Below the pieces are notes generated by a model. The model ran no database searches. It saw nothing but the letters and a program-made list of their open reading frames with translations, and had not been told where the DNA came from. Below, one piece after another: positions 13,456-40,362 of a stretch of 64,000 bases of DNA. Position 1 is the first letter of the stretch, and the number at the start of each line of letters is the position of its first letter. Source of the stretch: an archaeon (GTDB taxonomy: Archaea > Nanobdellota > Nanobdellia > SCGC-AAA011-G17 > GW2011-AR17); contig JABHLH010000019.1 of assembly GCA_018692925.1 (NCBI GenBank), positions 63,322 to 127,321 of the forward strand. The letters run 5' to 3'. The position numbers and the translations under genes were made by a program.

Positions 13456-14823
13456 ATGCGAGATAAGTTCCTAAAATATTATTTGAGGAAGGAAATTCAA
13501 CAGAAAATGCTAGAGATAGCTGAAGATAGAGAGATCGCTCCTAGGTATGGAGATGGTTTTGGTCGAAGACCGGATGTATTAAATTTTTTAGGAGATATTA
13601 AAGATATGGCAAAAAAAGGTGCTACCTCTTTTCATGTTTCTGAAGAAAGATGGACTAACCCTTTACAATTAAAAGCAGGAATGACAAAAAGAGAATTAGA
13701 TGCAAATAGAAAAGGTTGGGATTTAATTTTAGATATTGATACAGTACATTGGGATTATGCAAAACTAACTGCATATTTTCTTATTGAAGCAATAAAATTT
13801 CATGATGTGAAAAATGTTTCTATAAAATTTTCAGGAAATAAAGGATTTCATATTGGAATCCCATTTGAATCTTTTCCAGACGAAGTTAATGGAGTAAATA
13901 TTAAAGACTGGTTTCCAGAAGGACCGAGAATAATTACAGAGTATTTAGAAAATATGATTTGGGATATGTTAGCAAATAAAATTTTAGAAAAAGAAAATGT
14001 AACAGACATTGCAAAGAAAATAGAAAAACCAAAAGAAGAATTAATGAAAGATGGAAAGTTTAATCCTTTTGTTCTCGTCGATATTGATACAATATTAATT
14101 TCAAATAGACATTTGTTTAGATGTGTTTATTCCTTACATGAAAAAAGTATGTTAGCTTCAGTACCAATACCTATCGATAAAGTTATGGATTTTGAAAAAG
14201 TTGATGCAGATCCAGAGAAAATTCAAACAACAATGAGTTTTTTAGATAGAAGTAAAAGTGAAAATAATGATGCAAAACAATTATTGATTCAAGCTTTTGA
14301 TTGGCACGGGAAAAAAAATGCTATAAGAGGAAGTGAAGGATTAGTTGAAGTTGAAAGAAAAATGATTAATGTTCCTAAGAATGCAATTGCTGAAAACCAT
14401 TTTCCAAAGTGTATAGAAAAAATATTAGAAGGGAAATTAGAAGATGGAAAGAAAAGAGCTTTGTTTGTTTTAATTAATTTTTTGAAATCTATGAATTGGA
14501 GACATGATGATATGGTTGAAAGATTAAAGCAATGGAATAAAAGTAATAAACAGCCTCTGAGTCCAAGTTATTTTATTGGACAAATGAATTGGCATAAAAA
14601 ACAAAAAGAAAGTATTCTTCCACCTAACTGTAGTAATAATGCTTATTATAGAGATCTTGGAATTGCTTGTGAAAAACATATTTGTGAGAAATTTAAGAAC
14701 CCTGTGAATTGTGCAAAGAGATCTCAATGGATTGAACAAGAGAATAAAAAAAAGTCTGCAAGAAAAGTGAAAAAAGTAAAGAAAGTAAAAAAAGTAAAAA
14801 AGAAAGTTAAACCAGAGAGTTGA
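13456..14823 (+). CDS. priS: DNA primase small (catalytic) subunit PriS with C-terminal helical/Zn extension and K-rich tail
   Basis: AEP motifs LILDIDTV (motif I) and SGNKGFHIGIPF (motif II), plus VLVDIDTIL...R..YSLHEKS (motif III). A TATA (TTATATAT, 13428-13435) predicts a leaderless start at ATG 13456 (MRDKF); in-frame ATGs also exist at 13423 and 13450. The C-terminal 130 aa look PriCT/PriL-like (GKKRALFVLINFL...WNKSNKQPLSPS) and carry a 4-Cys cluster. Confidence 0.8.
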   Translation: MRDKFLKYYLRKEIQQKMLEIAEDREIAPRYGDGFGRRPDVLNFLGDIKDMAKKGATSFHVSEERWTNPLQLKAGMTKRELDANRKGWDLILDIDTVHWDYAKLTAYFLIEAIKFHDVKNVSIKFSGNKGFHIGIPFESFPDEVNGVNIKDWFPEGPRIITEYLENMIWDMLANKILEKENVTDIAKKIEKPKEELMKDGKFNPFVLVDIDTILISNRHLFRCVYSLHEKSMLASVPIPIDKVMDFEKVDADPEKIQTTMSFLDRSKSENNDAKQLLIQAFDWHGKKNAIRGSEGLVEVERKMINVPKNAIAENHFPKCIEKILEGKLEDGKKRALFVLINFLKSMNWRHDDMVERLKQWNKSNKQPLSPSYFIGQMNWHKKQKESILPPNCSNNAYYRDLGIACEKHICEKFKNPVNCAKRSQWIEQENKKKSARKVKKVKKVKKVKKKVKPES

Positions 14824-16938: not shown

Positions 16939-17057
16939 ACGAGCGGCCATAGTGGCCTGGTCCCACCTGTTCCCGTTTCGAACACAGAAGTGAAATAGGC
17001 CGACGTTCCGTTGCTGTACTGCATTTAATGCGGGAAACTCGGTGCGCTGCTCACCCT
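16939..17057 (+). rRNA. rrf: 5S ribosomal RNA
   Basis: GAGCGGCCATAGTGGCCTGGTCCCACCTGTTCCCGTTTCGAACACAGAAGTGAAAT aligns with the universal 5S loop B/helix III region. The terminal helix pairs 5' GAGCGGC with 3' GCTGCTC. A BRE/TATA lies 25 nt upstream. Confidence 0.8.
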
Positions 17058-17108
17058 TTATTTTTCTACATAAATCTTATATATTAGAAGTAAAAGTGAA
17101 ATCTTAAG

Positions 17109-18125
17109 ATGGTAAGTACATTATTAGCAAAATATGAGAATAATCCTAGATTAGATATTATTATTAATTCTTCTTTTAATCAAATTCCAGATTGGGATAC
17201 TCTTAGATCTATATTTGGAGAAGGAGTTTATATTAATCCTGGAGTTCCAGAATTAGAATGGAGAGAACTTTCTTTAGCAACACCTTATGATTTAGGAAAG
17301 GATTTAGGAGAAAGAACAATTCTAGGTAAAGGTAGAGTAATTAGATTTGAAGGAAGAATGATTGATTCTTTTACAATACAAGCACAAAGAAGAGGAGTTA
17401 TAACAGATCTTTCTTGGATGGAAACAGGCCAATATTGTTTTACTTTAACAAAAGATGGAAATAATATAATTGTAGGTACAAGAGGAGGAAGTGAGAGTGT
17501 AGGACAAGTTATTGCTTTGCCTGTAGGTAGTGTTGGATATCCAAGTGAAGAAGATGAATATGTAAAAAGATTATTTTTTGGCAATTCAGAAATGGAAATT
17601 GATCCTTGTAAGTTAGCAACTATGAAGGAAGGCTGGGAAGAAGGAGCAATTCATCCTAAAGAAGATTTAGAATATTTAGATTTAATTGGTGTTTATAGAC
17701 AGGATAAAGGAAGTGCTGCCCCTTCAAATATTTTTATGTATCTTAGTAGATTAAATATCGATGGAAAAGAAATCATTGAAAGACATAGAAGATCAATGAG
17801 AGAATATAATGCTATTAAAGATAAATTTAAAACAAATGCAGACTCTTCTCAAGTAGAAATAATGGCAAGAACCCATTTACAAATCTTGGCTTTTCATTTA
17901 CCTGAAAACGGTTGGGCAAAAGATGCTTGGGAAAATGAAAGTTTAAGTTTGTGGCCAGCAGATCCAAGAGATTTGGTAAAGATGTTTGAAGCAAAACCAA
18001 ATGAAAATTTAAAACATGGAATGTATGGTGCAATTGCTCTTTATGTTTTAGATACAAATGAGAATTTATTTGGTAGATTAATGAGCCTTCCACAATTTAA
18101 AGAACAATTAAAAGAAGATTTTTAA
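17109..18125 (+). CDS. hypothetical protein (338 aa)
   Basis: Long ORF with a leaderless-type promoter (CTTATATATT at 17077-17086). No known motif recognised. Confidence 0.4.
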   Translation: MVSTLLAKYENNPRLDIIINSSFNQIPDWDTLRSIFGEGVYINPGVPELEWRELSLATPYDLGKDLGERTILGKGRVIRFEGRMIDSFTIQAQRRGVITDLSWMETGQYCFTLTKDGNNIIVGTRGGSESVGQVIALPVGSVGYPSEEDEYVKRLFFGNSEMEIDPCKLATMKEGWEEGAIHPKEDLEYLDLIGVYRQDKGSAAPSNIFMYLSRLNIDGKEIIERHRRSMREYNAIKDKFKTNADSSQVEIMARTHLQILAFHLPENGWAKDAWENESLSLWPADPRDLVKMFEAKPNENLKHGMYGAIALYVLDTNENLFGRLMSLPQFKEQLKEDF

Positions 18126-18133
18126 TTTTTATT

Positions 18134-18160
18134 TTCTTTATCTTAGAAAGATATATAAAT
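18134..18160 (+). promoter_or_regulatory. promoter with conserved TTCTTTATCTTAGA element plus TATA box
   Basis: The same 14-mer plus TATAAAT recurs at 19257-19284 upstream of the next gene. Confidence 0.5.
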
Positions 18161-18175
18161 AAAATTATCCTTTAA

Positions 18176-19255
18176 ATGAATGTGATATCTAGAGCAGAAG
18201 AAAAAAGAGTTAATAAAAAAATTCAAGATGAAGTTCTATTAACAGAATTATCAAGTTATATTGAGAAAGTTCTAAAAAGAGAGATATTAGAAAATAATAG
18301 TGGACCTGATAAAAGATTATTTGTAAATTATATAAATTTAAGAAATATATCCAAAAATTTAAGAGTGGAATTATCAAGTTCTTTTGTAAGTTTAATCCCT
18401 AATAAAATCTGGGGAAGAGATTTTTTAATGTTATCTATAAGTCTTGATGTATATCATCATAATTTTGATAGAAAGGACCACTCTAATTGGGAAGAGATTT
18501 CTCAAAGCGCTATAAAAGAAGTGAAAAATATAAGAGTCAGAAATGATGAGGATTTAGGAACTAGTTTTAATTTTTTAGTTCCAATAAAAATAGGTAGAAA
18601 TAATATTGTTAATATAGAAGATGCAAAAAAAAGAGTAAGAAAGGAAGTTAGAAAAAAATTAATTAAAGTTTTTCAAATAATAAAATGTCACTTTAATGGA
18701 GGAGCTATCTCTATTGACGATATAAATAATAAGTTAGGTTTAAAATTAGAAGAGATATATAGTGATACAGTAAAAAGTAATATTTCCCCAAAAAGAAAAA
18801 TATCCAAAGTTATTGAAAGATTTGATCGTAGAGAAATTCATATAATTAATGGAGAATATGAGGGAGTTAAAGTTGCAATACAATTTAATCCAAAGGAATC
18901 ATTCCCAAAAATTAGAACAAAAAGATTCCCAAAAAGAGTTATGATAATGTGGGATATTGAATTCCATATGTTTATTGATCAAAATTTTAGAAGCTTACCT
19001 GAAAAATATAAAAGCCTTAATACTTGGTCAAGATTTGCTGATAGAATTAGAAAAAGCAAATTATTAAGCCTCTCACAGGTTGGAGACGGTGATTTAGTTG
19101 TGTACTGGAATTATCCTTTAGTAATTACTGTAAAAAATGAGTATGATCTAGGAATAAACTTGAAAATTTCAAAGCAAATGGATAACATGAGAAAGGATAC
19201 TTCAAAAAGACTTAAAGTAATAACTAAAACAATTAATACTATTTTTGGAAATTAA
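18176..19255 (+). CDS. hypothetical protein (359 aa)
   Basis: Long ORF. Own promoter with TTCTTTATCTTAGA plus a TATA box (18134-18160). No known motif. Confidence 0.4.
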   Translation: MNVISRAEEKRVNKKIQDEVLLTELSSYIEKVLKREILENNSGPDKRLFVNYINLRNISKNLRVELSSSFVSLIPNKIWGRDFLMLSISLDVYHHNFDRKDHSNWEEISQSAIKEVKNIRVRNDEDLGTSFNFLVPIKIGRNNIVNIEDAKKRVRKEVRKKLIKVFQIIKCHFNGGAISIDDINNKLGLKLEEIYSDTVKSNISPKRKISKVIERFDRREIHIINGEYEGVKVAIQFNPKESFPKIRTKRFPKRVMIMWDIEFHMFIDQNFRSLPEKYKSLNTWSRFADRIRKSKLLSLSQVGDGDLVVYWNYPLVITVKNEYDLGINLKISKQMDNMRKDTSKRLKVITKTINTIFGN

Positions 19256-19305: not shown

Positions 19306-19995
19306 ATGGAAAAAAAGAGTGAGAAACAGAGATTTGGTACTCCACACCAAAGAGTTGAAAAAAAAGTGAAAAAAAGAAAATTAAACTTTCTAAATAAAAA
19401 TAAAGACCATAAGAAAGATCCTAAAAAAGATTCTAAAATAAAGGAGCATGGAAGTAATTTAAAAGTTCTTTTAACAAAATCAGCTATTCCAGTTATTGTT
19501 TTAATTGTATTAATTTTAGTACCAAATATTATTGGATTTGCAACTTATCAAAAAGTTAGTGATGAAGAAGTACAAACTGTAAATTATGCAGCTGAAGTTG
19601 AAACTCTTGAAGAAGAATTAGGAATCTTAAATACAAATATGACTACAGTTTCTGGAATAAATGGAGAATTAATAGATTTAGTTCAAAGTAGTACTGAAGA
19701 ATATACGACCTGTGTGCAAGATAAAAGTAGTTTACAAGTTAGTTATGATAATGTATATTCTGATTATCAAAGTTGTTTAAATGAACAAGCTAGTTTAAGT
19801 TCTGTTAGTGATGAAGTTGAAAGTTTAGAAGAAGATATGGAAGAATTACAAGAGAGTTTTGATAGTTTAGCTGAGAGTTCAGCAAATAATATTTGTTGTA
19901 AAAAGAAAGTAGATGATTCTAGTATTAGATATTATAATGTTGCAGGAAATGAAGTTGTTTGTTCTTCAAGCTCAGGAGAGAGCTTATCCTGTTAA
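19306..19995 (+). CDS. hypothetical membrane-anchored protein with coiled-coil and Cys-rich C-terminus
   Basis: Basic N-terminus, one TM (IPVIVLIVLILVPNIIGF), acidic coiled-coil, C-terminal Cys cluster. Same promoter motif as the gene at 18176. Confidence 0.4.
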   Translation: MEKKSEKQRFGTPHQRVEKKVKKRKLNFLNKNKDHKKDPKKDSKIKEHGSNLKVLLTKSAIPVIVLIVLILVPNIIGFATYQKVSDEEVQTVNYAAEVETLEEELGILNTNMTTVSGINGELIDLVQSSTEEYTTCVQDKSSLQVSYDNVYSDYQSCLNEQASLSSVSDEVESLEEDMEELQESFDSLAESSANNICCKKKVDDSSIRYYNVAGNEVVCSSSSGESLSC

Positions 19996-20073: not shown

Positions 20074-20892
20074 ATGACACAATACGATGAACATACATTA
20101 TATTTAACACAATTATTAAGACTAAGTTTACCATTAGATGTAGCAAAAAGAGTTTCTAGAGCTAAAAATAATATTGCAAACCTTGTTGGTGTAAATGCAG
20201 ATAATGGAGTAACAATTGTACAATACCATATGGATGACCAATCAGAAGTTTTAGGGACAACAGAATATGCAACAGATAAAACAAATGCAGCACTAACAGC
20301 TTGGAGAGAACAAGTACATAATTTTGCAAAAGGATTATCTTTAGATGCACCACAGTTTTTACCTTTAGCAGTTGGTTTAGACGAAAGAAAACTTTTAGAC
20401 TTAGAAGAAGCTTTAAAACTTAATATTGAATTAGTGGCTTTAGAAGACCCAAGAGATTTTGCAGACGCTTATCAAGAAGATTTAGATGAAGGGATTATTG
20501 GTGTTCCAGGAACAATTGCAATGATGGCTGTTGATTTGAAATATTTAAATGCAGCTGGAAGAGCAGGAGTTAGTGGAGAAAGTTTTGTTAGTCAAATTAG
20601 TAGAGATATGAGATTAGGTAAATATGAACATGTTAAAGCTTTATCACCAACTAGTACCTTGAGAACAGTTTTACCAGGAGAGGCAAGAAAAAATCAAGAG
20701 TTTGTTCTTTTTGGACCGAATGCTTATTGTACACCTTTAAGTAAAGGATATGGACCAAGAGGAGATGATGATAGACCTATAGGTGCAAAAGTAATTGGAC
20801 ATAGTATTGATATTACAGCTGGATTTGTAACTCCTGTTAATCTAGGTCAAGGTTATAACAAGGCACCAATGTTTCCTTTTGATAGAAGGTAA
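20074..20892 (+). CDS. hypothetical protein (272 aa), Lys-poor compared with neighbours
   Basis: SD AAGGAG 8 nt upstream. Composition is A/G/L-rich with about 5% Lys. No motif recognised. Confidence 0.4.
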   Translation: MTQYDEHTLYLTQLLRLSLPLDVAKRVSRAKNNIANLVGVNADNGVTIVQYHMDDQSEVLGTTEYATDKTNAALTAWREQVHNFAKGLSLDAPQFLPLAVGLDERKLLDLEEALKLNIELVALEDPRDFADAYQEDLDEGIIGVPGTIAMMAVDLKYLNAAGRAGVSGESFVSQISRDMRLGKYEHVKALSPTSTLRTVLPGEARKNQEFVLFGPNAYCTPLSKGYGPRGDDDRPIGAKVIGHSIDITAGFVTPVNLGQGYNKAPMFPFDRR

Positions 20893-20908
20893 ATAAATTT
20901 TTATTTTT

Positions 20909-22945
20909 TTATTCAAATTTAACTAAAGTTTTTTCTGGAAAATTAAGAATAGCTTCAAGATTATTTTCACCCTTTGGCACATAATTTATAGTTCCACCAT
21001 GATCACCAATAACTCTTCTAATAATAATCTTTCCGCCTCTTTCAGTTTCAGCATCAGAATTTAAATCGTCAATTACTGTTTGTGGAGGAAGATCACAAGT
21101 ATTACCTAAAACAACTTTAAATCCTTCATCCATTTTTTCAGCCTGAACATAAATTTTTGGTGAACTATAATCAAGTGTTGCTTTTAATCCATTACCTAAT
21201 AAGTTTGCAAATAATAATCCAATATTTTCTCTATGTCCTCTCATAGTTAAATCTGAAGAGATAGCTAATTCCAAATTAATTTGAGAAGCTTGACCAGGGA
21301 AGTTAGTTCTAAATTCATCTAAAACAAGATCTCTTAAAGAAAATTCAGCCCAAGATTCAGTAGCATATTCTTTCATCCATCTTCTCATAATCTTGTCATA
21401 ATCTTTACAAGTTCCAAGCAATAAATTTAAACCAGTTTGAAAATCGGAAATAATTGTTTTTGTTTCATCAGTTAAAATCGGAAGAGTTGATAATTCTCCA
21501 TTAAGGAAGTTGATACCATCTTCTACATCTAAATAAGAATAAGAAGGAGGTCCACCTCTTCGTCTTCTTCTAACTCTTTTCTTTTTTTCTCCAGGATTAA
21601 ATCCTTTCCTTAATTCTTCATAAGATGGAGCTCTACCAAAGAGCCTAGTTAGATCTAATTGAATTTTTTCTGGATGTTCTAAATTGTAATTAGTAATTGC
21701 AGCTTCAGCAGAATTATGAATTAATCCTAATACAGGTAATGCAAGAGAATAACCTTGAGCAACAAGTTCAATTCCAAAATAGTTTGCAGCATGATGAAAC
21801 CTTGCATGAAGTTCTTTTTCTATTGAATCCATTTGTCGAATAGTATTTGCAGCTTCAACTGTTTTATTTTTGAAAGCCTGTTCTGCAGCTTCTTTTCCAA
21901 GCTCTGCTTCTTTAATTCCTTCTGAAACAACATCTAAAGATTTTTTATCTGCACCAAATAAACCAACTATTTGAATAATACCCTGCCTCCACCATTTTCT
22001 TGCAGCACTTGGTTCTTCCCAAGTAAAATCATAAACACTTGTAAAAGAAGGTGTATCTAAACCAAAAATAGTTCCTTCTCTAAAAATGGATAAGTTTTGA
22101 GTTAAAGCGACATAAGATAAATCCCTTTTTGTTAAAGATTCAAGTGAAGCAATAGGAAGTTGTCTTTTATTAAATCTATTAGGGTTCCCTTGAACAATTT
22201 CACCTTCAGGAATAATTAATCTTGGTCGTTCTTTTGTTTCTTCTAATTGAATTTCTTTTATAACTCTAAACATAGGGTGTTGAATTTCAAGATAAGATAA
22301 ATTAGTTTCATCAATACCAACTCTTGTTGCTAATAATTCATCAGTCTCGCTTCTATAAAAATCATCTCCTCTTCTCTCAAAATCAATTCCTAATTCTCTA
22401 AAAACATTTTCAACTTTTTGATCAAGCATTCTAATGTTTGAGAAAATATCTGTATTACAAACAACACCAACACCATGGTAATATCCAACAGAAGTTAATG
22501 GAGCTAAAAGATATTTATTTGAAGCTAAACCAATATTGTAATGTAAAATTCTTGCTTCTCCTCCTTCTTTAGGTAAGTGATTAACAATTATTCTAGAATC
22601 AATATTTAATTTTGGATTCATACCTGTTTCAGATTGATCAAAGATAAAATAAGGAGATTGTAAAAGTCTTGAAGCCATAGCTGCTTGATCATATTTATCT
22701 TTTCCAATGTATGAACCAATTTGTAAAAAATCTCCAGGTGTTGCCTCTGTGTGTTGCATAACAAAATGAGACATATCTAAAAAATCTTGATGAGAAATTA
22801 AATTTACTTTGTATAATTCTTCTAAAGTTTGACCACCTTGTTCAAGATAGGTTTGATAAACTTCAGGATAGTTTTCCATTAAATAGTGAACTTGTATTCT
22901 TTTTGAAATAGATCCTAATTCTTTCCCTTCTAATCTAAACGCCAT
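20909..22945 (-). CDS. large protein with C-terminal degenerate GHKL/HATPase_c-like domain
   Basis: The C-terminal 120 aa read as HATPase_c: N-box LLFANLLGNGLKAT, a G1-like VVLGNTCD, and a G2-like ERGGKIIIRRVIGDHGGTINY...NFP. The 550-aa N-terminal region is unrecognised. An R-rich stretch KKKRVRRRRRGG is present. Confidence 0.4.
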   Translation of the reverse strand: MAFRLEGKELGSISKRIQVHYLMENYPEVYQTYLEQGGQTLEELYKVNLISHQDFLDMSHFVMQHTEATPGDFLQIGSYIGKDKYDQAAMASRLLQSPYFIFDQSETGMNPKLNIDSRIIVNHLPKEGGEARILHYNIGLASNKYLLAPLTSVGYYHGVGVVCNTDIFSNIRMLDQKVENVFRELGIDFERRGDDFYRSETDELLATRVGIDETNLSYLEIQHPMFRVIKEIQLEETKERPRLIIPEGEIVQGNPNRFNKRQLPIASLESLTKRDLSYVALTQNLSIFREGTIFGLDTPSFTSVYDFTWEEPSAARKWWRQGIIQIVGLFGADKKSLDVVSEGIKEAELGKEAAEQAFKNKTVEAANTIRQMDSIEKELHARFHHAANYFGIELVAQGYSLALPVLGLIHNSAEAAITNYNLEHPEKIQLDLTRLFGRAPSYEELRKGFNPGEKKKRVRRRRRGGPPSYSYLDVEDGINFLNGELSTLPILTDETKTIISDFQTGLNLLLGTCKDYDKIMRRWMKEYATESWAEFSLRDLVLDEFRTNFPGQASQINLELAISSDLTMRGHRENIGLLFANLLGNGLKATLDYSSPKIYVQAEKMDEGFKVVLGNTCDLPPQTVIDDLNSDAETERGGKIIIRRVIGDHGGTINYVPKGENNLEAILNFPEKTLVKFE

Positions 22946-23081: not shown

Positions 23082-24584
23082 ATGTTAAAAGAGACTTTGT
23101 TTCCCTTCAAAATAATAAATGGAGTTGGAAAAAGATTATTAGATAACTATTGGTTGTCAAAAAAAGTTATTGAAAATGGTTCTCCGGCATTATTAGAAGA
23201 AATTTCTAAGCAAAAAGCATTCTATATTCATAAAAAAGCATTGAAAAATGTTTCTGCATATCAAAAATTTATAAGAGGAAAAAAATATAGTTTAATTGAA
23301 GATGTTCCTTTAACAGATAAAAAAAATTATGTTAAAAAATATTCTTATGAGTCAAGATGTGTAAATAATAAATTTCCAAAGAAAGGAATTATAGAAGAAT
23401 CATCTGGTTCTAGTGGAAAACCTACAAATTGGATAAGAGAAGTAGGAGAAGCAGAGTTATTATACAAAGCAGCAAAGTTTGAATTTTATTATACTTTTAA
23501 TGCAGATAAAAAAGATTATATTGTTTTGAGTGGATGGTCATCAGGACCATGGGCAACTGGATTAAAATTTTGTGAATTAATGGAACAGTATATGCTTGTA
23601 AAAAATACAACTGCAGATATTGATAACAATATTAGAACTTTAAAACAATTAGGAAAGAAATATAATTATTTGATTGCAGGATATCCTCCATTCTTGAAAA
23701 ATTTGTTTGATAGTAAAGAAATTAACTGGAAACAATATAAAATTGATATAATTACAGGTGGAGAATCAACTACATTAGAATGGAAAAAATATATTAGAAA
23801 ACAATTAGGAAACAAAAATGCAAAGATTATTTCTTCATATGGTGCTTCAGATATTGATATTGGGATTGGTTTTGAAACTCCATTTTCAGAATTTATTAGA
23901 GAATTAACAAATAAGAATCAAGTTTTGAATAAAAAATTATTTGGAACCGATCAAAACCCCATTTTATTCCAGTATAATCCCTTAATGCATTATATTGAAA
24001 ATAATAAAGTTGGAGACTTTTCAGTTACTTTGTTAGATCCTGAAGTAGCTTCACCGAAAGTAAAATATAATTTACATGATAGAGGAGGAGCAATATCTTA
24101 TAAAGATATCATTAAAGATTTAAATAAGTATGAAAGAAATAAATTGAAAACCTTTTTGAAGAAAAATAAAACTTTGAAATTACCTTTCTTGTATGTTTGT
24201 GGACGAGTAGATGGAACTATTTCAATTGGAGGGAATAATATTTATCCTCAACAAGTTGAAGAAGCAATCCATGCCTCAAAATTAGCTTCAAAAGTAAATA
24301 GGTTTATGATTGGAACTAGCCAAGATAAACATTTTAATGTTAAATTTGATGTACATGTAGAATTAAAGAAAGGAGTTAAAAAAACAAATCTTAAACCTTT
24401 CCTTGAAAAGATTATTTTGAAAAAATTATTAGAAGAGAATTTAGAGTTTAAAGAATATTATAGAAACCATAAAACTAATCAAGTTTATTTGAAACCAAAA
24501 GTTAGTTTGTATGATTTTAATAAAGAGCATATTTTTAAGAAACAAAATAAAAGTATAAAACAGAATTATATTCTTAAATCTTAA
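23082..24584 (+). CDS. adenylate-forming enzyme, PaaK/coenzyme F390 synthetase/GH3-like family
   Basis: P-loop-like ESSGSSGKPT matches the TSGTTGKP adenylation motif of PaaK-like ANL enzymes. Size is 500 aa. Confidence 0.55.
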   Translation: MLKETLFPFKIINGVGKRLLDNYWLSKKVIENGSPALLEEISKQKAFYIHKKALKNVSAYQKFIRGKKYSLIEDVPLTDKKNYVKKYSYESRCVNNKFPKKGIIEESSGSSGKPTNWIREVGEAELLYKAAKFEFYYTFNADKKDYIVLSGWSSGPWATGLKFCELMEQYMLVKNTTADIDNNIRTLKQLGKKYNYLIAGYPPFLKNLFDSKEINWKQYKIDIITGGESTTLEWKKYIRKQLGNKNAKIISSYGASDIDIGIGFETPFSEFIRELTNKNQVLNKKLFGTDQNPILFQYNPLMHYIENNKVGDFSVTLLDPEVASPKVKYNLHDRGGAISYKDIIKDLNKYERNKLKTFLKKNKTLKLPFLYVCGRVDGTISIGGNNIYPQQVEEAIHASKLASKVNRFMIGTSQDKHFNVKFDVHVELKKGVKKTNLKPFLEKIILKKLLEENLEFKEYYRNHKTNQVYLKPKVSLYDFNKEHIFKKQNKSIKQNYILKS

Positions 24585-30815: not shown

Positions 30816-30941
30816 CCCTGTCTGGCTCAACGGTAGAGCACTCGGCTGTAGATCAATTCGCCCTTTGACGGTGCAAATGCACAGAATGAAAATGGGAGAG
30901 CCGTACCCGAGCGGTTCCTGGTTCAAATCCGGGGGCAGGGA
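30816..30941 (+). tRNA. tRNA-Tyr (GUA) with a 54-nt canonical-position intron
   Basis: Acceptor CCCTGTC/GGCAGGG with C1:G72, the archaeal/eukaryal Tyr identity pair. D-arm GCTC/GAGC. Anticodon stem CTCGG, loop CUGUAG, intron, then CCGAG. T-arm CCTGG-TTCAAAT-CCGGG. Discriminator A. Intron is about 30852-30905. Confidence 0.7.
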
Positions 30942-31380: not shown

Positions 31381-33525
31381 GTGAAAAAAATGAAAAAAAT
31401 TTTTGTTCTTACTATGTTTATAGTATTATTAACAGCAACAGCCGCAAGCGCAAATGTCTGGGATTCATTGACAGATGGATTTGAATTTATGACAGGAGCA
31501 TCTATAGGAGTTATGGAAGGAGAGGAAGAACCTGCACCTGAGCCAGAGCCAGAACCAGAACCAGAGCCTGTTCAAGAGCCAGAACCTGAGCAAGAACCTG
31601 AACCAGACCAAAGTGGAGATGATGGAAATCAAGAACCTACAGATAATGGAAATCAAGAACCTACAGATGATGGAAATCAGCAACCTGGAGATGAAGGAAC
31701 AAGTGGTGGATCTGATGATGGAAATCAACAACCTGGAGATAGTGGATCAAGTGGTGGATCTAATGATGGTGGAAATGAAGAACCTTATTATCCCTCTTAT
31801 GTTTGTGGAGATGGAATCTGTGAATCTGGAGAATCTGATTGTCATGATGACTGTGGTGGAGGAGGCTACGATGATGGCGGAAACTACCCAAATGATGGTG
31901 GACAAGAAGGAGATTATTGTGGAGATGGATATTGTAAAGAACACGAAAAAGGCTGGTGTCAAGAAGATTGTAGTGGTCAACAAGGTGGAGAATCTTATGG
32001 TCAATGTGGTGATGGATTTTGTGATAAAAATGAAAAAGAATCAGGACAATGTCATGATGACTGTGATCCAAATAAAGGAAGACCACGAAGAGAAGCTGGA
32101 GCACAAATTAGAGGACCAAGTTATGCACCAGATGTATTCACTGAAGATTTATTAGAACAATATGGAGAAGGTTGGTGTAAGGATGGTCAATGTTGTCCAG
32201 ATAATATTTGTGATGAATTCGAACAAAGAACAAATGGTTGCCCTTATGATTGTGGCCAAGAAGAATATGGAGATGATTATGGATCTGTTTGTTTAGATGA
32301 AAGTTCTTTAGAAACAAAAAAAGATGAATGTTTTGCAAATGGTGGAGATCCAAGAACTGATCAAGCAGGAGATTGTTATTATGTTAAGTGTAGTTTTGGT
32401 GGACCAGGTGGAAATGGAGGACCAGGACATGGATATGCTTATGGTGATGATATTCGAGGACAAAAAGATCAATGTGCAAGTATGGGATTAGAAGCAGATG
32501 TTAGACCTGGAATGAATGGACCTGTAGTTGAATGTGTACCTTATGGTCAAGCTAGAAATGGAATGATCGATCAAGAAATTGATGCAGCAGAAGCTTTAAA
32601 ATTAGTTCTTAAGTTAGAAGAGATTTCTATAAAGATTAGTGAAGATGGACCTTTGTACACAAAAATATCTGATTTGAAAAATTACTATGAATCAAATGGT
32701 GAAGAAGGAGATTCAGATAGATTTGCAAATGCTTTAGAATATATGACTGAAGGACAACAAGCAATTGAAACTTTAAAAGAAAATATGAAAGAATCAATTG
32801 AAAGTGATGGTAAACTTACAGTTGAATCACTTTATTCATTTAAGTCAATGGCTAGAGATATTGTTGAAGGAGTATTCAATAAAATAACTTATGCAATGCT
32901 TGGAGTGGATATCGATGCAGTAACAGTTGAAGTTACAGCAGAAGATTGTGGAGATGATGATTTTTGTTTTGAAGAAAAATATCATACATGTACTGTAGGT
33001 TCAAGTTTTAGTCCAGACGAATTCATAACAATAAGTATTGTAGATCAAAATGATGCAGGACAATGTACAATAGATTTAGACTTTGAAACAGGTGATCAAA
33101 TATCTTGTCTTTTTGAAATTACTGACTACAAATATAGACCTTTATCAAAAGAAACATTTGATAGTGTATGTGGTGAAGAGTTTAGAAATTTAATGGAGAA
33201 ATTTGATTCAGAGAGAACAGAGGGACCAAATGGACCTGGAGGACCAGGAGAACATAGTCAATGTGGTGATGGAATCTGTGATGACGATGAACTTGGATAC
33301 TGTTATGAAGACTGTGATTCAGCATACAATGAGTATGATGAATATGAAGAGTATGATAACTACGAAGAATACGATAACTACGAAGTTGATTATGATGTAG
33401 AATATAGTGATGATGTAGTTGTAGATGATACAGTAGAAGAAACAACAGAAGAAGTTGTTGAGGAAACTGTAGAAGAGACAGAAGAAGTTGTTGAGGAAAC
33501 TGTAGAAGAAGAGGTGGTAGTATAA
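31381..33525 (+). CDS. secreted acidic cysteine-repeat protein (CGDG-x-C...C-x2-DC repeats)
   Basis: Signal peptide, an (EP)n linker, DGNQEPTD repeats, and at least 6 copies of C-G-D-G-x-C-x3-E-x2-4-C-x2-D-C (e.g. VCGDGICESGESDCHDDC). Acidic tail YDEYEEYDNYEEYDNYE. SD GGAGA upstream. Confidence 0.5.
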   Translation: MKKMKKIFVLTMFIVLLTATAASANVWDSLTDGFEFMTGASIGVMEGEEEPAPEPEPEPEPEPVQEPEPEQEPEPDQSGDDGNQEPTDNGNQEPTDDGNQQPGDEGTSGGSDDGNQQPGDSGSSGGSNDGGNEEPYYPSYVCGDGICESGESDCHDDCGGGGYDDGGNYPNDGGQEGDYCGDGYCKEHEKGWCQEDCSGQQGGESYGQCGDGFCDKNEKESGQCHDDCDPNKGRPRREAGAQIRGPSYAPDVFTEDLLEQYGEGWCKDGQCCPDNICDEFEQRTNGCPYDCGQEEYGDDYGSVCLDESSLETKKDECFANGGDPRTDQAGDCYYVKCSFGGPGGNGGPGHGYAYGDDIRGQKDQCASMGLEADVRPGMNGPVVECVPYGQARNGMIDQEIDAAEALKLVLKLEEISIKISEDGPLYTKISDLKNYYESNGEEGDSDRFANALEYMTEGQQAIETLKENMKESIESDGKLTVESLYSFKSMARDIVEGVFNKITYAMLGVDIDAVTVEVTAEDCGDDDFCFEEKYHTCTVGSSFSPDEFITISIVDQNDAGQCTIDLDFETGDQISCLFEITDYKYRPLSKETFDSVCGEEFRNLMEKFDSERTEGPNGPGGPGEHSQCGDGICDDDELGYCYEDCDSAYNEYDEYEEYDNYEEYDNYEVDYDVEYSDDVVVDDTVEETTEEVVEETVEETEEVVEETVEEEVVV
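31522..31611 (+). repeat. hexanucleotide (GARCCA)n tandem repeat encoding an (EP)n linker
   Basis: gagccagagccagaaccagaaccagagcct... inside the 31381 CDS. Confidence 0.7.
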
Positions 33526-33526
33526 A

Positions 33527-33721
33527 ATGAATAAAAAAATTATGGCAATAGTTTGTATCTTATGTCTGTTATTAGTATTAACAGGTTGTAGTACAACAAG
33601 TATAGAGTCAGATGAAGAAGCTGTAGAAGATATAAGTGATATTAATGATGAGATTGCAGAGATTACAGATGATCTAAATGAGCTAAGTGATGATTTAGGT
33701 TCTGAAGAAAACGCAGCATAA
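33527..33721 (+). CDS. small acidic lipoprotein-like protein
   Basis: Lipobox-like LTGC after a signal peptide. Very acidic mature part. Confidence 0.4.
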   Translation: MNKKIMAIVCILCLLLVLTGCSTTSIESDEEAVEDISDINDEIAEITDDLNELSDDLGSEENAA

Positions 33722-33730
33722 ATTTTTTCT

Positions 33731-33759
33731 TTTTTTTATTTTAAATGAAATTCTACAAT
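33731..33759 (+). repeat. 29-nt direct repeat copy 1 (TTTTTTTATTTTAAATGAAATTCTACAAT)
   Basis: Identical to 34295-34323, which covers the 3' end of the DRG GTPase gene. Flanks the duplicated lipoprotein gene. Confidence 0.7.
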
Positions 33760-33825
33760 AGGTGTTTTTATAAAATCCTTTTACTCCTAAAATATTAAAT
33801 ATTATTTAAAAAAGGAGGAAAAAAT

Positions 33826-34281
33826 ATGAAAAGAATATTATTAGTAATAATGGTTCTAAGTTTGTTAGTTGTAGTAGGATGTGCAACTGAAGAAGGAACT
33901 GTTTGTTTTACAGAAGAAGAATTAGAAGAAATGAATACAGCATTAACTGAAGTTACTGGTGAAGAAGATTCTGAAATACAATATGCTCCAGGAGCAACTG
34001 AAGATAGAAAAGGAATCATTATGAATCGTGTTAGGTCTGTAAATACTTTTTTTGCTACATATGAAGGAGATTTAGAAGAAATTAGAGTACATACTATTAG
34101 AGTCATAACAAGAGAAGAAGGTAGTGAACAATTAGAGACCATAGAAGATGGAGTAGATCCAGATACTGAAGAATCTCAATCAGAAAGTGAAACAGATAGT
34201 GAATCAGATGATGGAGAAGAAGAAGAAGAAGAAGAAGAAGAAGAGGATGATGATGAAGGTGAAGAAGGGGGTACAGGTTAA
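33826..34281 (+). CDS. acidic lipoprotein-like protein, paralog of 33527 gene
   Basis: Signal peptide plus VVGCA lipobox. Poly-Glu tail. SD AGGAGG upstream. Flanked by 29-nt direct repeats. Confidence 0.45.
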   Translation: MKRILLVIMVLSLLVVVGCATEEGTVCFTEEELEEMNTALTEVTGEEDSEIQYAPGATEDRKGIIMNRVRSVNTFFATYEGDLEEIRVHTIRVITREEGSEQLETIEDGVDPDTEESQSESETDSESDDGEEEEEEEEEEDDDEGEEGGTG

Positions 34282-40161: not shown

Positions 40162-40257
40162 GGAAATAGAAAGAATCTTTGAGTTTTAAAAGAATATTTG
40201 TGTTGGAACATACATAGAAATCCTTATAAAGAATATTAAAGTTTTATTGGATAACTG

Positions 40258-40362
40258 GGATAGTAGTTTAACTTGGCTAGAGCAGTCGGCTCCAACCCGA
40301 CAGATCGGGGAAACAATCTACGTTAAGGAGAATGTTCCGAAATTCAAATCCCTGCTATCCCA
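40258..40362 (+). tRNA. tRNA-Trp (CCA) with a putative ~32-nt non-canonical intron in the T-arm
   Basis: Acceptor GGGATAG/CTATCCC plus A73. Anticodon arm GTCGG-CUCCAAC-CCGAC. T-stem CGGGG/CCCTG with loop TTCAAAT. About 32 extra nt (AAACAATCTACG...CCGAAA) sit between T-stem 5' and the T-loop. D-stem is weak (GUUU/GAGC). Minus-strand reading rejected for lack of a T-arm. Confidence 0.5.

Follow-up and report, generated by a model that had tools for sequence, protein, structure and literature searches.

We examined a 64,000-nucleotide window of an archaeal contig (JABHLH010000019.1, positions 63,322–127,321), which has a G+C content of ~30 per cent and carries a 5S rRNA gene and a Mre11/Rad50-like gene pair. 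Its nearest public relatives are metagenome-assembled genomes (MAGs) labelled Woesearchaeota and Nanoarchaeota. An earlier annotation made from the letters of the window alone (hereafter, the original prediction) had singled out two convergent open reading frames (ORFs), and we confirmed both at the same positions: a gene for a soluble, acidic 272-aa protein on the forward strand (20074..20892) and a gene for a soluble 678-aa protein on the reverse strand (20909..22945; stop codon at 20909–20911), with a 16-nt, T-rich spacer between them. The 678-aa protein, which has a pI of 5.4 and no predicted transmembrane (TM) segments, has homologues with 84 per cent identity in Woesearchaeota/Nanoarchaeota MAGs. 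The ratio of nonsynonymous to synonymous substitution rates (dN/dS) is 0.16 for the 678-aa gene and 0.21–0.27 for the 272-aa gene, indicating that both are real, constrained genes. The 678-aa protein belongs by descent to the histidine-kinase family. Its closer family appears, as far as databases show, to be confined to Woesearchaeota/Nanoarchaeota (DPANN archaea), and its members, wherever they are named in the sources, are called 'hypothetical protein'.

The evidence for this descent begins at the C-terminus (aa 531–678; 20912..21355, reverse strand), with a catalytic and ATP-binding (CA) domain of the HATPase_c type that has a Bergerat fold and contains the N-box NLLGNG, the tripeptide N615-T-C, and the motifs RGGK and DHGG. 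Searched alone, the 678-aa protein has no match in Pfam, kinase models included, and only sub-threshold matches to NCBIfam kinase models. A library-wide HMMER search of 1.84 billion representatives returned 26 proteins, of which about a dozen (the window protein excluded) share its N-terminal domain; the complete ones among these are 600–680 aa long. Some of these distant members pass Pfam thresholds, namely P0017 and P0024 for HATPase_c, and P0010, P0015, P0017, and P0024 for HATPase_c_5, and most of the weaker library matches scanned with Pfam are HisKA+HATPase_c kinases of the ordinary type. A match over the entire catalytic domain of ThkA from Thermotoga came from a profile of four close sequences (E = 3.5e-4); ThkA is also hit by a profile of 14 family sequences (E = 6.6e-13), and all 47 PDB sequence matches of the family profile are histidine kinases. 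Structure prediction with AlphaFold2 (AF2) on the full 678-aa protein gave a predicted local distance difference test (pLDDT) score of 35 from the four close sequences; the model used here was obtained from the 14-sequence alignment. This model has the alpha/beta-sandwich ATP-binding fold of the GHKL/HATPase_c superfamily. Histidine kinases make up nearly all of the structural matches listed for it, beside a few related protein kinases and H-NOX proteins; MutL, GyrB, Hsp90, and MORC are not among the matches listed. The original prediction had proposed a GHKL fold for the C-terminus, and on this point the structural matches and the ThkA match of the family profile agree. We have high confidence both in the CA fold and in the sequence homology of the domain to histidine-kinase CA domains.

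The motifs quoted in the original prediction are all present in the 678-aa protein (LLFANLLGNGLKAT at aa 577–590, LGNTCD at 613–618, ERGGKI at 635–640, GGKIIIRRVIGDHGGTINY at 637–655, and KKKRVRRRRRGG at 454–465), and its description of the G1 and G2 boxes as degenerate is confirmed by the motif alignment. The N-box retains both of its asparagines (N581 and N585) and aligns with NLLxNA of relatives and canonical kinases. In place of the G1 box DxGxG, the window protein has N615-T-C-D-L, against N(S/T)(G/A) as the consensus of the family; the glycine has been lost in the small clade to which the window protein belongs (the window clade). ThkA, which was crystallised with ADP, likewise has Asn for Asp in its G1 box, and the family-wide Asn is therefore compatible with nucleotide binding. 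At the F-box and ATP lid, relatives (P0004 included) and canonical kinases have RFSTK...GGxG, whereas a deletion of ~18 residues, specific to the window clade, has left SDAETERGGK. This deletion removes the FSTK/F-box and most of the lid and reduces the G2 box, GxGxG in its canonical form, to RGGK. The G3 motif, HGG in relatives, is kept in the window clade as DHGG. P0004 independently lacks the G1 Asn. Judging from these alignments, the degeneracy of the boxes is a derived feature of the window clade, whose autokinase activity is probably weak or altered, given the loss of the F-box, the lid, the G1 Gly, and the acidic residue after the candidate phospho-acceptor His described below. The CA region has a dN/dS of 0.13, the lowest within the 678-aa protein; because it is still under purifying selection, the CA domain of the window clade retains some function.

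According to the original prediction, no H-box or histidine of a dimerization and histidine phosphotransfer (DHp) domain precedes the CA domain. The family alignment contradicts this claim. Two predicted helices (aa 335–348 and 354–423, together 21677..21943, reverse strand) form a candidate signalling coiled coil or DHp helix 1. The longer one, which follows a coiled segment, bears the candidate H-box ELHARFHHAANYF (aa 378–390; 21776..21814, reverse strand), whose His384 (codon 21794–21796) is near-invariant across the 14 family sequences within a motif hH[D/H]xx[H/N]xF. Distant members have hHDxxHxF, and the window protein has FHHAANYF. Specifically, the position after the His, acidic in canonical kinases, is Asp in all nine distant members that cover the region and His (H385 in the window protein) in the window clade and P0004. 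A variable insert of low pLDDT (aa 424–470; 21536..21676, reverse strand) separates this helix from a pre-catalytic helical segment (aa 471–528; 21362..21535, reverse strand; AF2 helices 471–485, 493–514, and 516–528), a candidate DHp helix 2 that the family profile aligns with DHp helix 2 of ThkA, HK853, and ZraS. Foldseek aligns the model with the DHp and CA domains of HK853 over ~210 columns, in an alignment from which the register relative to the HK853 His is not readable. HisKA-type Pfam models match none of the 14 members. We assign the DHp domain, and His384 as its phospho-acceptor candidate, with moderate confidence. The conserved His on a DHp-like helix and the alignment with HK853 point to a histidine-kinase architecture, which is at odds with the non-kinase GHKL ATPase proposed in the original prediction.

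The poly-basic tract KKKRVRRRRRGG (21551–21586, reverse strand), which the original prediction had cited as a sign of Arg richness, is one short stretch of the variable insert. It occurs in the window clade only, being absent from P0004 and all distant members, and is encoded by AAG/AGA-rich DNA. The run of Arg residues is five long in the window protein and seven in P0002, a variation that slippage of the repeat within a disordered insert could explain.

The large N-terminal region, which the original prediction had called unknown, indeed has no Pfam match in any of the 14 members. In the AF2 model, residues 1–185 (22391..22945, reverse strand) adopt the H-NOX fold, with a sequence identity to H-NOX proteins of 7–9 per cent. 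H-NOX, V4R, and TRAPPC3 reportedly have one fold in common, with ligands bound inside an internal cavity (PMC10933270); on the basis of this fold and the reported cavity binding, residues 1–185 are predicted to be an H-NOX/V4R-like ligand-binding domain. The invariant residues of the domain are H52, P70, S97, D116, S117, G139, Y145, G154, Y155, and M173, with A206 just past its end. The HNOB and V4R Pfam models match none of the 14 members at E-values up to 5, and a profile of the N-terminal domain found no H-NOX chains in the PDB. In the helix (aa 98–106) that is equivalent, by the order of secondary-structure elements, to the alphaF helix carrying the heme-ligating His of H-NOX, every member lacks a His. 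Likewise, the YxSxR heme-propionate motif is absent from the alignment, and G139 and Y145 are conserved after strand 2 instead. The domain is followed by a beta-rich subdomain (aa 186–320; 21986..22390, reverse strand; pLDDT 76–93), delimited from AF2 secondary structure and conservation, within which sequence conservation in the family is highest (REGTxFGGxxPAPTSVYxFxWEE, and W309).

Both genes of the pair lie in a conserved neighbourhood. On one flank are genes for ribosomal proteins, SecY, primase, a Cas4-like nuclease, and P5CR, then a membrane protein of 227–229 aa, and then the 272-aa gene; on the other, beyond the kinase-like gene, are genes for a 500-aa enzyme, an alpha/beta hydrolase, Mre11, Rad50, and Sua5. 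This gene order is common to the window, its close relatives (L001–L006), and the more distant P0004, and synteny of the pair extends to relatives that share only 22–26 per cent identity in the kinase-like protein (L007 and L008; also L010 and L012). The best-conserved neighbour is the 500-aa protein (23082..24584, forward strand), whose gene is divergent from the kinase-like gene and which has 65–66 per cent identity in L007 and L008, versus 22–26 per cent for the kinase-like protein there. Its counterparts lie at 2686–4194 in L007, 2943–4454 in L008, 8904–10406 in L010, and 890–2395 in L012; the gene adjoins the pair in L010 and L012 and is always found beside the alpha/beta hydrolase gene. 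The protein has an SSGSSGKPT motif, weak matches to PaaK and AMP-binding_C_2 models, and faint similarity to PaaK/ANL enzymes (PDB 2y4o, E = 0.018). As an adenylate-forming enzyme, it is uncharacterised, and its sequence is highly conserved.

Directly upstream of the 272-aa gene in the window (19306–19995, forward strand) is the gene for a 229-aa protein that is Lys-rich at its N-terminus and Cys-rich at its C-terminus and has a single TM helix and a coiled-coil region; it holds the same place in close relatives, with 78–82 per cent identity, and has only weak IcmG/DotF-like and coiled-coil matches. Between the P5CR gene and this gene, the window carries a lone 5S rRNA gene (16939–17055) and two ORFan genes, of 338 aa (17109–18125) and 359 aa (18176–19255). 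The interval 16939–19255 looks like a local insertion, as the P5CR and 229-aa genes adjoin in L001–L004. Elsewhere in the window, Rfam gives two long tRNA matches on the forward strand (30816–30941, 126 nt, and 40257–40362, 106 nt), which are probably intron-bearing; ARAGORN reports none in the window.

The 272-aa protein has homologues in three clusters only, matches nothing in Pfam, NCBIfam, PADLOC, PHROGs, or the PDB, and is encoded next to the kinase-like gene in L001–L006. Among close relatives, the convergent product has 273 aa in L001 and 274 aa in L006; on the contig of the more distant P0004, it has 316 aa, and further off it has 261 aa in L010, 284 aa in L012, 146 aa in L007, and 170 aa in L008. 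All lineages examined thus have a convergent gene behind the kinase-like one. In L010 (6001–8775), the kinase-like gene and its convergent 261-aa gene are jointly inverted relative to the 500-aa gene, as compared with the window; the pair seems to stay together, which suggests that the two genes travel as a unit. The original claim that the two genes belong together therefore holds as far as position is concerned, and the support is positional throughout. We attribute to chance a weak peroxiredoxin-like match within the 272-aa protein (FVLFGPNAYCTP, E = 0.7). On a 3.1-kb contig (P0007, JGI), a predicted 378-aa protein combines TPR repeats at its N-terminus with a stretch identical (100 per cent) to the C-terminal 163 residues of the 272-aa protein; this is the product of either a chimeric assembly or a genuine fusion of genes.

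At the level of sequence, the downstream proteins of different lineages are hard to connect. Jackhmmer produced no links among them, hhalign gave a probability of 0.07 per cent, and pairwise BLAST gave marginal links (E = 9e-4 and 6e-3) from single comparisons. By eye, these proteins show receiver-like hhhhDDQ and hhhD motifs. Specifically, the small convergent proteins of L007 (6263–6703, reverse strand, 146 aa) and L008 (6584–7096, reverse strand, 170 aa) begin with VVDDDQ and LIIDNDQ, respectively, and have a later hhhD motif. Against a home-made receiver profile, these two rank 2 and 3 among 466 ORFs, with scores reached by 1 in 1000 shuffled sequences. The same profile finds nothing in the 272-aa family or in the convergent proteins of L010 and L012, for which 13–50 per cent of shuffles score equally. 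Pfam Response_reg matches none of the downstream proteins, and hhalign receiver tests gave probabilities of ~0.1 per cent. The identification of the 272-aa protein itself as a receiver domain from its by-eye motifs is thus unsupported by Pfam, the receiver hidden Markov model (HMM) with shuffles, hhalign, and jackhmmer, and for the small L007 and L008 proteins the support is marginal. L007 also encodes a stand-alone, divergent receiver of 128 aa (13538–13924, reverse strand; Response_reg score of 25.2 bits, below the gathering score), whose gene is flanked by those for ribonucleotide reductase and deoxyhypusine synthase and lies at a distance of 7 kb from the kinase-like gene of this Woesearchaeote. 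We found no counterpart of it in the window.

The original prediction had further described the pair as conspicuously Lys-poor and Arg-rich and had read this composition as a hint of foreign origin or of a defence module. The two proteins contain 4.8 and 5.6 per cent Lys, compared to a window mean of 10.6 per cent (SD 5.2 per cent), and their K/(K+R) values are 0.46 and 0.49, compared to 0.71 (SD 0.14) for the window. The low K/(K+R) stands, as both proteins are among the lowest 6 of 66 ORFs, but the Lys poverty is no outlier, as ~15 of the 66 are equally Lys-poor. The G+C content at third codon positions (GC3) is 0.10–0.11 for the pair and 0.15 on average for the window, and codon usage of the pair is native, with a GC3 typical of the window. 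Of the neighbours, the 338-aa ORFan has a K/(K+R) as low as that of the pair (0.49); BLASTP shows no kinship of this protein with either gene of the pair, despite the like composition. Two very acidic ORFs at 31381–34281 on the forward strand (714 aa with 25 per cent Asp+Glu, and 151 aa with 33 per cent Asp+Glu and 1.3 per cent Lys) are stronger compositional outliers than the pair.

With these data in hand, the module of the original prediction, in which a foreign, non-kinase GHKL ATPase or pseudo-ATPase acts with the 272-aa protein in defence or signalling, appears very improbable. The GHKL fold, the degenerate boxes, and K/(K+R) values in the lowest decile of the window are what such a module could have. 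Yet nearly all of the listed structural matches and all of the PDB sequence matches are to histidine kinases, a conserved His lies on the DHp-like helix, GC3 is native, and the pair keeps its place in the core genome even where the kinase-like proteins share only 22–26 per cent identity. Additionally, PADLOC has no match among six proteins of the locus, no PHROGs model matches either protein of the pair, and the viral contig collection that we searched holds no relatives of the pair. Because of the conserved gene order in close and distant relatives, the native GC3, and these negative searches, we reject the foreign or defence reading: the 678-aa gene is native and conserved.

We consider it probable that the 678-aa protein is a cytoplasmic sensor of the histidine-kinase family, with an H-NOX/V4R-like front and a CA rear, that acts in ligand-controlled signalling. 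From the N-terminus to the C-terminus, it would consist of the H-NOX/V4R-like domain, the beta-rich subdomain, the helix bearing His384, the variable insert, the second helical segment, and the CA domain. A small ligand, probably hydrophobic or gaseous, would bind the N-terminal domain, and the helix would relay the signal to a dimer's DHp/CA unit, where either the phosphorylation of His384 or partner binding would change. The most likely downstream partner would be the product of the convergent gene, here the 272-aa protein; none of the lineages examined has lost such a gene. Several observations weigh against this proposal. The H-NOX assignment comes from a single AF2 model of 14 sequences, with no sequence-level match behind it. 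In that model, the helix bearing His384 has pLDDT values below 50 up to residue 388 and of ~58–66 beyond. His384 lies ~200 residues before the N-box, compared to ~120 in canonical kinases, so that the DHp domain would be atypical and the phospho-acceptor role of His384 is one that we infer. Kinase activity may be nil, given that the window clade has lost its lid, its F-box, and the acidic residue that follows His384. Finally, the 272-aa protein has no detectable similarity either to the downstream proteins of distant relatives or to receiver domains (receiver HMM with shuffles, and hhalign), and no receiver domains were detected within the 64-kb window.

Alternatively, the protein may have descended from histidine kinases and become a pseudokinase or scaffold, which in the window clade would not autophosphorylate and would act through ligand-dependent protein–protein interaction, for example as a phosphatase, inhibitor, or adaptor, via the DHp-like helices and the retained CA surface; RetS and DivL offer precedents for kinase-like proteins with atypical catalysis. 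We regard this as possible, if somewhat doubtful. The clade-specific loss of ~18 residues, the change from NxG to NTC in G1, the G2 remnant RGGK, and the replacement of Asp by His after His384 are all in keeping with it, as are the separate absence of the G1 Asn in P0004, the presence of RetS and DivL among the close structural matches, and the lack of a receiver found nearby. However, the N-box Asn pair, the G1 Asn, two glycines where the G2 helix begins, and DHGG are all kept, and the low dN/dS of the CA region would be unexpected if its surface alone were maintained, yet does not exclude this. Moreover, short-lid histidine kinases with activity exist, such as those of the HWE/HisKA_2 types.

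The pair may also be a complete, extremely divergent two-component system, in which the 272-aa product would be a receiver-like phospho-acceptor with a large insertion that current profiles fail to recognise. The retention of a convergent gene in every lineage, the receiver-profile ranks of the L007 and L008 proteins, and, by eye only, the DDQ and hhhVD patterns in the 272-aa protein would fit such a system. Against it stand the lack of Response_reg matches, the nil profile results for the 272-aa family and the L010 and L012 proteins, the hhalign and jackhmmer results, and the marginal BLAST values; the by-eye motifs are short and possibly due to chance. We therefore judge this alternative unlikely. 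Only slightly less doubtful is a broader version, in which the pair would be a cryptic signalling system of Woesearchaeota/Nanoarchaeota in which an H-NOX-fold domain without heme ligands would control a lid-less histidine-kinase module, and this in turn would act on the 272-aa protein. The molecule sensed would be small, hydrophobic or gaseous, and possibly host-derived, and the 272-aa protein would represent a novel type of acceptor or effector, perhaps a receiver diverged past recognition.

A published census counted no two-component systems in two finished Nanoarchaeota genomes and one system among four finished DPANN genomes, with some in unfinished DPANN assemblies (PMC5847659). Because the census found so few, a kinase-like family that standard models miss is of moderate interest: Pfam misses several of its members, the window protein included. 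In several Woesearchaeota/Nanoarchaeota lineages the family occupies a constant position within the core genome, and purifying selection acts on it, which would make the sensor of the histidine-kinase family proposed here a candidate for sensing the environment or a host in organisms whose genomes are very small. If the cryptic-system reading were true, genome-reduced archaea that by census are nearly devoid of two-component systems would hold a conserved one that has been invisible. The N-terminal domain, in turn, is predicted to be a previously unrecognised H-NOX/V4R-like sensor domain, archaeal and with a different set of conserved residues. Additionally, the family offers a natural series from members with a canonical lid (P0010, P0017, and L007) to the lid-less window clade, which could show what histidine kinases need of their lids.

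Among known systems, the 678-aa protein is a variant rather than a new kind of system. The closest one is the DHp+CA core of class I sensor histidine kinases, such as ThkA and HK853 (HATPase_c, PF02518; HATPase_c_5, PF14501), from which the protein differs in the longer spacing between the His and the N-box (~200 rather than ~120 aa) and in the variable insert between the helices; the window clade differs further in lacking the F-box, the ATP lid, and the G1 Gly, and in having His rather than Asp or Glu after the candidate phospho-acceptor. Compared to H-NOX and V4R/TRAPPC3 proteins, its N-terminal domain lacks the heme-helix His and YxSxR and conserves H52, D116-S117, and Y145 instead; unlike H-NOX, it is fused directly to a kinase, with an extra beta-rich subdomain following it, and occurs in an archaeal host. 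RetS and DivL, which are catalytically atypical kinase-like proteins, resemble the 678-aa protein in combining DHp and CA domains with non-canonical catalytic motifs, but have no specific sequence relationship to it.

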